7,813 nucleotides of DNA from a virus (Duplodnaviria > Heunggongvirae > Uroviricota > Caudoviricetes), in IMG/VR virus record IMGVR_UViG_2529292715_000014, positions 1 to 7,813 of that record; one strand, given 5' to 3'. Shown in pieces: positions 6,160 to 7,475 of the stretch. Position 1 is the stretch's first letter. Each line of letters begins with the position of its first letter. Both the position numbers and the translations under genes were made by a program. Under the pieces are notes generated by a model, which did no database searches, was not told the DNA's origin, and saw only the letters and a list, made by a program, of their open reading frames with translations.

Positions 6160-6613
6160 TTAAATACTCCCCGCGTTATACCACGTCCCATTAATGCAAT
6201 ACTGAATTGGCCTTGCCTGAGTTGTATCAATTAGTTCATCTCTGTTTGAGTTAACGGAACCGGTAACAACATAACCTGACCTGTCAGACCAGCCGGGACC
6301 ATTCCATGTCCGAACAGATGACAGACCACCAAGGCGAATACCTGTAATAAACCTTGAGTTACATTCTGCCTGCGTATATGCGCCAACATCTCTCGCTGAT
6401 GGCTTGCGTGTTGTGGTGTAAAACTCTGACCAGCCAGCCTCAAATCCATAACCATCACGCGCTGAACGATAAAAAATACCGCCGTTCTTATAATTCACAC
6501 GGAACTGTACAGCAGGGCAGCTCCCCGTATTCTTATTGAAGTGGAGGATTAATGTTGATGCACCGCTGATATTTGCATCATAAACACCGCTATTCCAGTT
6601 CCAGCCAACAGCT
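6160..6613 (-). pseudogene. Tail-fibre variable segment (alternative copy), 3' remnant truncated at its 5' side by the IS3-family element
   Basis: Minus-strand translation ...PQAVGWNWNSGVYDAN...SGYVVTGSVNSNRDELIDTTQARPIQYCINGTWYNAGSI ends with the same RPIQ-Y-INGTWYN motif as the other variable segment. The apparent N-terminal MVVSAIAST is read from the IS terminal repeat; no gix site or 5' region is present. Confidence 0.75.
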
Positions 6614-6656
6614 TGAGGTGTACTGGCAATAGCGGACACTACCATTTGTTCTTTTT

Positions 6657-7475
6657 TTAAGCAGCCATCTGATGATATTTTTCCCTGAAGGCTGCCGGGG
6701 AGATATTCCCCAGACGAGAGTGACGACGCTGACGATTGTAGAAAATCTCAATGTATTCCCGTATTACTGAGATGGCTTCATCCCGGTTATTAAAACGATA
6801 GTGGCTCAGGCTCTCATTTTTCAGCGTTCCCCAGAAGCTTTCCATCGGAGCGTTGTCGTAACAGTTACCTTTACGCGACATTGATGTTTTCAGACCAAAC
6901 TGCTCCTGTATGACCCGGTAATCGTATGCGCAGTACTGTGAACCTCGATCAGAGTGGTGGATTAGCCCGGCAGGTGGGCGCTGGCTCCTGAGCGCCATAA
7001 ACAGGGCTTTACCTGTCAGCTCTTTTGTCATGCGCTCTCCCATGGCGTAGCCGACAATTTCGCACGTATAAACATCTTTGATGCCAGCGAGGTACAACCA
7101 TCCCTCCTGTGTGGCAACATACGTCAGGTCCGCCACCCAGACCTGATTTGGTGCTGTAGGAGCGAACGTCTGGTTCAGCAGATTTGGCGCAACTGGCAGA
7201 TTGTGGTTCGGGTTCGTAGTCGCTCTGAACTTGCGTTTCTGCTTACAGCGTAGCCTCAGCTCCTTACGAAGACGTGCCAGTCGGTCACGACCAACGATGA
7301 TGCCATTCTCTGCCAGCTCCGTCTGGAGCCGCCGGGTTCCATATGTTTCGCGAGTGCGGATATGTGCCACCTTAATCTCCAGTTTTAGCCGCTCATCACT
7401 TTGTTTTCTGTCTGAGGGTTCATGCTGTACCCAGTTGTAATAACCGCTCCTGGATACACCAAATACCTGACACAT
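6657..7475 (-). CDS. IS3-family transposase OrfB (DDE integrase-like catalytic domain), IS600-like
   Basis: Translation contains ...WVADLTYVATQEGWLYLAGIKDVYTCEIVGYAMG...HHSDRGSQYCAYDY...KGNCYDNAPMESFWGTLKNE, typical of IS3-family OrfB. Normally expressed as an OrfAB fusion. Confidence 0.9.
   Translation of the reverse strand: MCQVFGVSRSGYYNWVQHEPSDRKQSDERLKLEIKVAHIRTRETYGTRRLQTELAENGIIVGRDRLARLRKELRLRCKQKRKFRATTNPNHNLPVAPNLLNQTFAPTAPNQVWVADLTYVATQEGWLYLAGIKDVYTCEIVGYAMGERMTKELTGKALFMALRSQRPPAGLIHHSDRGSQYCAYDYRVIQEQFGLKTSMSRKGNCYDNAPMESFWGTLKNESLSHYRFNNRDEAISVIREYIEIFYNRQRRHSRLGNISPAAFREKYHQMAA

Follow-up and report, generated by a model that had tools for sequence, protein, structure and literature searches.

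A copy of IS600 very probably marks a deletion junction in a Mu-like prophage remnant within dpiA of Shigella flexneri

The prophage remnant and its tail-fibre cassette

The window, by which we mean the whole 7813-bp stretch of DNA analysed, is assigned from its sequence to the right-hand remnant of an SfMu/Mu-like transposable prophage, with S. flexneri as the host and the response-regulator gene dpiA as the target (Table 1). Its best phage relative is Shigella phage SfMu: positions 1971-6614 of the window are colinear with the SfMu right end (32882-37146 of the SfMu record) at 92-96% identity, barring an IS1 copy and two small deletions. Just before the Mu right end, the 5-bp motif CTGGG lies inside dpiA at 1966-1970 and represents the Mu target duplication; its second copy is found at 16525-16529 of L007, the locus identical to the window that is described below, directly after a Mu left end that terminates in ...GTGAATCAATACA at 16524. 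Mu-type ends and the 5-bp duplication are thus both present, and when the prophage is removed in silico the two halves of dpiA become contiguous. The dpiA::Mu junction was present in S. flexneri and in S. boydii 600080 (locus L006), while 0 of 5,426 complete E. coli genomes spanned it. The locus is therefore specific to the Shigella lineage and, as at least one clade of S. boydii carries it alongside S. flexneri, constitutes an old lineage marker. In the collection, 780 blocks index the dpiA'-Mu hybrid protein.

With an A gene 98% identical to that of SfMu, a repressor gene c that barely aligns, and only about 83% identity to SfMu in the first 236 bp of the left end, the prophage is best classed as a Mu/D108-style mosaic with a putatively different repressor. 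The left-end and immunity region is unlike that of SfMu (L007 16252-16524; L008 17763-18381). In connection with the host genes, lesions in dpiB differ among lineages that carry the same prophage, the gene being broken into pieces of 38 + 305 + 191 aa in one case and 222 + 315 aa in another, and the sensor kinase gene seems to have decayed independently, once its partner gene had been disrupted. Every remnant examined has intact mom and com ORFs, and mom differs from its SfMu counterpart by 12 synonymous and 3 non-synonymous codons. As the remnant-bearing lineages are only 0.2-0.3% divergent from each other, the intact ORFs carry no power on the question of selection, and expression of mom and com is doubtful because the late activator gene is deleted.

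Table 1. Features of the window, with coordinates counted from its first base.
Feature	Position	Strand	Remarks
dpiB	1-1527		Frameshifted near the 3' end; 508 aa here versus 552 aa in L006
dpiA, 5' part	from 1627
Mu right end	1966-1995	+	Starts at 1971, TGAAGCGGCGCACG...
mom	2086-2811	-	Intact ORF; Pfam Mom, E = 6.9e-75; colinear with SfMu
com	2732-2920	-	Intact ORF; Zn_ribbon_Com gene calls; colinear with SfMu
gin remnant	3002-3211	-	384 bp deleted internally, in frame, versus SfMu and L017
gix remnant	3267-3280	+	The sole gix remnant; half-site TCGGTTTACAGGAA
S'v, other variable segment	3290-5066	+	Interrupted by IS1; Pfam Gp34_trimer
IS1 in S'v	4056-4823		768 bp; 8-9 bp duplication TATTCCCG(G)
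U', assembly gene of the other orientation	5068-5595	+	175 aa, intact; Pfam Caudo_TAP; colinear with SfMu gp51
U, assembly gene paired with Sv	5624-6157	-	177 aa, intact; Pfam Caudo_TAP
Sv, C-terminal fragment	6160-6613	-	151 codons; Pfam gp37_C
Hybrid ORF	6160-6645	-	161 aa; codons 1-10 (MVVSAIASTP) from the IS600 end
IS600 (IS3 family)	6614-7813	-	1200 of its 1264 bp lie inside the window
IS600 orfB	6657-7475	-	272 aa; DDE/rve transposase domain; Pfam rve, rve_3, rve_2, HTH_21
IS600 orfA	7511-7813	-	100 aa; HTH_Tnp_1

Between com and IS600, fibre and assembly genes form two sets in opposite orientation, minus-strand Sv-U and plus-strand S'v-U', both colinear with their SfMu counterparts. The same U protein occurs, without any difference, in intact Mu-like prophages, and in these relatives S is full-length (486-488 aa), both gix sites are perfect and Gin has 193 aa. 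The functional hallmarks of the G segment are lost here, namely paired gix sites, gin and the constant fibre region Sc. The last, which in an intact cassette lies outside the segment and provides promoter and N-terminus, is nowhere in the locus. Of the gix next to gin, the other half-site was removed by a deletion of 11 bp at 3264/3265 (ATTATCTAAAA). Neither the window nor L007 or L008 yielded a complete 26-bp gix (up to 4 mismatches allowed); in the intact relative L017, both sites are present and perfect over 26 bp. The gin remnant amounts to approximately 65-69 codons, and a 65-aa 'Resolvase' fragment is called in related loci versus the full-length Gin of intact relatives. Since this lesion is common to S. 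flexneri, S. boydii 600080 and the L008/L009 pair of loci introduced below, it must be old. By descent, the cassette is the Mu/SfMu G segment, and its gene content predicts that it can neither invert nor be expressed.

Several further observations were made on the cassette. A GC-rich hairpin (AAGGCCCG-CTAT-CGGGCCTT, 5596-5623) separates U from the convergent U' and looks like a shared bidirectional terminator. The IS1 copy in S'v is absent in L008/L009, whose IS1 sits in the Mu left-end region, and in L005/L006 an inverted IS1 at window-equivalent position 3610 is joined to unrelated chromosomal DNA. A related Mu-like prophage with an identical U (L018, CP026877.1, 4599-8605) holds its G segment in the opposite orientation, with Sc fused to the S'v type in a 503-aa protein, showing that the cassette does invert in relatives; in L018, the interval from com to the segment seems too short for a complete gin.

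The truncated fibre gene and the adjoining IS600

Homology to the S gene ends at window position 6614 in every BLAST comparison, both with the intact relatives SfMu (L002), L013 and L017 and with the less-decayed L019. The T at 6614 can be assigned to either partner, as intact S reads ...AACAGCTTT and IS600 starts with TGAGG, which places the breakpoint at 6613/6614. The minus-strand coding sequence at 6160-6612 translates as AVGWNWNSG...NAGSI, and, save for one substitution, the fragment matches residues 336-486 of S in L017, a protein of 486 aa. Because gix occupies codons 166-174 of S in L017, Sv comprises approximately 316 codons, of which the C-terminal 151 are retained here; the 5' part of Sv (approximately 165 codons), gix and Sc (approximately 170 codons) are absent.

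All that the first-pass annotation had specifically read from the window is borne out by these results. It had the fibre-like coding sequence stop at about 6613, where an IS terminal repeat beginning TGAGGTG starts, and it took the second variable segment to be truncated, with its upstream part, its gix and the junction to Sc missing; all of these are found as described, and the missing parts are absent in L007 too. It had also placed this copy in the expressed position. Indeed, the Sv fragment shares its strand with U, com and mom and has the orientation seen in SfMu, L013 and L017, where this type of Sv is fused to Sc. The corollary that the selected fibre is destroyed is true, but it has become moot, since the locus also lacks Sc, the late activator and every other tail gene, and has neither a functional gin nor a complete gix site.

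Across the junction runs a hybrid ORF, in which codon 11 (Q) straddles the IS600/Sv boundary and the remainder is the Sv fragment. A promoter scan of positions 5500-6800 gave no minus-strand sigma-70-like site able to drive this ORF, and on these grounds we dropped the idea of an expressed truncated fibre. Exact look-up of the 161-aa product returned no record, and the 38-bp Sv/IS600 junction had 0 matches in a one-genome-per-species collection, a result of little weight as few Shigella are included there. The hybrid ORF is probably meaningless. Lacking a promoter, an N-terminal part and a recombination site, the Sv fragment is a dead relic, and 6160-6613 is accordingly best annotated as a pseudogene relic, the prophage remnant around it being dead as well.

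The adjoining element, called IS3-family and IS600-like in the first-pass annotation, is identified as IS600 itself. Its orfB-proximal terminal repeat begins at 6614 (TGAGGTGTACTGGCAATAGCGGACACT), and the 1200 bp from there to the end of the window share 99.6% identity with an E. coli element annotated as 'IS3-like element IS600 family transposase'. The complete element, which occupies 14988-16251 (1264 bp) of L007, is 99.6% identical over 1264 bp to an annotated IS600 in NZ_CP025842.1, and complete 1264-bp copies occur in 13 loci at 99.6-100% identity, one of them annotated as IS600. The terminal inverted repeats (TGAGGT...ACCTCA) are imperfect, begin with TG and end with CA; the ends read TGAGGTGTACTGG... 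and ...CAGGCTACCTCA, with 17 identical positions in the first 27 bp of the two arms. OrfB scores 334.6 bits against the NCBIfam model NF033516 (IS3 family transposase; cut-off 160). A slippery run of seven A residues at 7556-7562 is predicted in silico to allow a -1 frameshift yielding a 385-aa OrfAB, and gene calls of 385 aa are present in related loci. By these features, the IS600 copy looks intact. Its lack of a 3-bp target duplication (see below) follows from its place at a deletion junction and has no bearing on its identity.

The flanks of IS600 in two lineages

By exact-protein look-up with the dpiA'-Mu hybrid ORF, we retrieved seven 20-kb loci. In one of these, L007, positions 8375-16187 are 100% identical to the window over all 7813 bases. 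L007 derives from a 77-kb draft contig (AKMX01000024.1, assembly GCA_000268245.1) listed as S. flexneri K-1770 (PMC6397287). Here, IS600 is followed by 273 bp of Mu left end, CTGGG and the 3' part of dpiA, whose ORF contains the Pfam domain HTH_64, and then by dcuC, pagP, cspE and crcB. The 273-bp stretch aligns to SfMu 236-1 over L007 16290-16524, and it also matches the left-end region of L008. The first-pass annotation had put the far end of the IS at roughly 60 bp past the window, and had left two possibilities there, a simple insertion with the 5' part of the fibre gene continuing beyond the IS, or an IS-mediated deletion. Extension to the right in L007 located the orfA-proximal end 64 bp beyond the window, at window-equivalent position 7877, and revealed no tail-fibre 5' part, gix or constant S region beyond IS600. 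No fibre 5' region or gix is contiguous with 6613, and the opposite IS end maps to 6614. This outcome points to an IS-associated deletion.

The two junctions of the window type read CCAGCCAACAGCT/TGAGGTGTACTGG on the Sv side and GGCTACCTCA/GCATGAGCTGATTTG on the left-end side, where the slash marks the IS600 boundary. The bases flanking IS600 are GCT (Sv side) and GCA (left-end side), and thus do not form a 3-bp duplication. As a control, with boundaries defined in the same manner, we inspected L001 (E. coli 720632), in which IS600 has inserted simply into a tail-fibre assembly gene and is flanked as ATG-IS600-ATG. The same junction pair as in L007 was found in closed chromosomes, including CP054892.1 (S. 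flexneri 3a FDAARGOS_713), CP066809.1 and CP032513.1. In SfMu coordinates the missing stretch extends from about 274 to 32881, or approximately 32.6 kb, a size measured on a phage whose immunity region differs from that of the prophage here. This loss took the repressor gene c together with ner, A and B, all genes for head and tail and, from the fibre cassette, the 5' half of Sv with the left gix and Sc.

L008/L009 (the same loci as L019/L020), from two NCTC assemblies, show the prophage in another state. They share the dpiA::Mu insertion and carry IS600 in the same orientation, while both junctions are different. On one side, IS600 is joined to Sv 261 bp further upstream (GACCTTATTGTT/TGAGGTG); on the other (GGCTACCTCA/ATAAACCGTGCTG), its neighbour is a MuA gene truncated at SfMu position 2902, beyond which come ner, c, an IS1 copy and the left end. 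With GTT and ATA as flanking bases, a duplication is lacking here too. As the junctions differ on both sides, IS600-associated loss has occurred at least twice in this prophage. By their flanking chromosomal DNA, the remnant-bearing hosts fall into three roughly equidistant clades (23-36 SNPs per 11.6 kb), made up of S. flexneri (L003/L004/L007), L005/L006 (which includes S. boydii 600080) and L008/L009. Lesions common to the three clades indicate that the Mu insertion and the gin deletion predate the clade split.

Formation of the junction and relation to known systems

On the window alone, IS600 could have inserted into an otherwise complete S, with the 5' part of Sv, gix and Sc just beyond it, much as the L001 copy sits as a simple insertion, with its ATG duplication, in a gene of the tail-fibre region. 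The 5' part of Sv, beginning GCTTTATCATTTGC, would then abut IS600 as GGCTACCTCA/GCTTTATCATTTGC. What lies there, both in L007 and in six further loci, is instead the Mu left end, dpiA and dcuC, and no gix was found within 20 kb. This far flank and the missing duplication refute simple insertion, to which we assign practically no probability. A draft contig of 77 kb might also have been mis-joined over a collapsed IS600 repeat, but such an assembly artefact is likewise refuted, and as negligible, by the identical junctions in several closed chromosomes of 4.5-4.6 Mb. Another scenario would have the deletion come first, by illegitimate recombination or a Mu-mediated rearrangement, and IS600 insert later at the scar. 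GCT and GCA have two of their three bases in common, as an eroded duplication might; this order of events requires a later point mutation in the duplication, however, and a second coincidence in the other lineage, where GTT and ATA do not form a duplication either, and is very improbable. Lack of a 3-bp duplication together with a far flank that is the Mu left end argues that IS600 very probably marks a deletion junction in the dpiA::Mu prophage, rather than a simple insertion.

From what was observed directly, namely which sequences flank IS600 and meet it at its two junctions, and that no target duplication is present, we infer a route for the deletion. Two directly oriented IS600 copies would have been present, one in Sv and one near the left end, and homologous recombination between them would have deleted the intervening prophage, possibly in more than one step. 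The orfB-proximal end of IS600 would thereby have become joined to S codon 336 within Sv and the orfA-proximal end to bp 273 of the Mu left end, with loss of everything between. We lean towards this route, given the hundreds of IS copies per Shigella chromosome (229-348; Hawkey et al., 2020, PMC7373316) and the documented recombination and deletion between IS copies in Shigella, as for pINV (PMC5629016). A two-copy IS600 intermediate was seen in none of the 20 loci examined, and the final structure fits inter-IS600 recombination and transposition-coupled adjacent deletion alike. By the latter mechanism, IS600 would stay where it is while its ends, acted on by the transposase, attack nearby DNA, so that both flanks erode stepwise and an L008-like state gives rise to that of the window. 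Such a course would suit the occurrence of IS600 in the same orientation and relative place in two lineages, and the fact that the window state is shorter than that of L008 by 261 bp next to orfB and by 2596 bp (A', ner, c) next to orfA, with no duplication in either. Transposition of IS3-family elements follows a copy-out-paste-in pathway via a circular intermediate, and this pathway is not, to our knowledge, one that readily yields adjacent deletions. The abundance of IS copies in Shigella and the well-documented recombination between them also weigh against adjacent deletion, and as the three host clades are about equally distant, the data do not make the L008 state ancestral to the window state. 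Adjacent deletion therefore appears rather unlikely compared with inter-IS600 recombination. We are more doubtful still that the two lineage states document, in nature, how an IS3-family element removed its flanks step by step from both ends without leaving its place; we know of no copy-out-paste-in element for which serial transposase-mediated adjacent deletion is established. Whichever route was taken, the junctions between Sv and IS600 and between IS600 and the Mu left end are stable, lineage-specific markers that could order IS600 events in the S. flexneri phylogeny.

In the literature searched we found no description of the dpiA::Mu remnant, and SfMu remnants in S. flexneri have been reported only by PCR and Southern blot (PMC4406740). 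The same paper describes the cassette in SfMu, with 34-bp repeats. In the window, gene order and orientation follow the Mu/SfMu G segment (Sc-gix-Sv-U / U'-S'v-gix-gin; SfMu gp49-gp55) at 92-96% DNA identity. The cassette departs from those of Mu and SfMu in lacking Sc, the left gix and the 5' half of Sv, in deletions of 11 bp in the right gix and 384 bp in gin, and in the IS1 copy within S'v. The IS600 copy agrees with IS600 of Shigella and E. coli in length, terminal repeats, orfA plus orfB, the A7 site and the 385-aa OrfAB; at simple insertions IS600 is flanked by a 3-bp target duplication, whereas the copy here lacks one and appears to sit at a deletion junction. IS-driven decay in Shigella is well described (PMC7373316; PMC5629016), and here too, expanded IS600 and IS1 interrupt genes and lie at deletion junctions, giving rise to lineage-specific variants of one ancestral locus. 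There is no difference in kind, and the locus is a case of routine IS-driven prophage decay, a biology that is already known.
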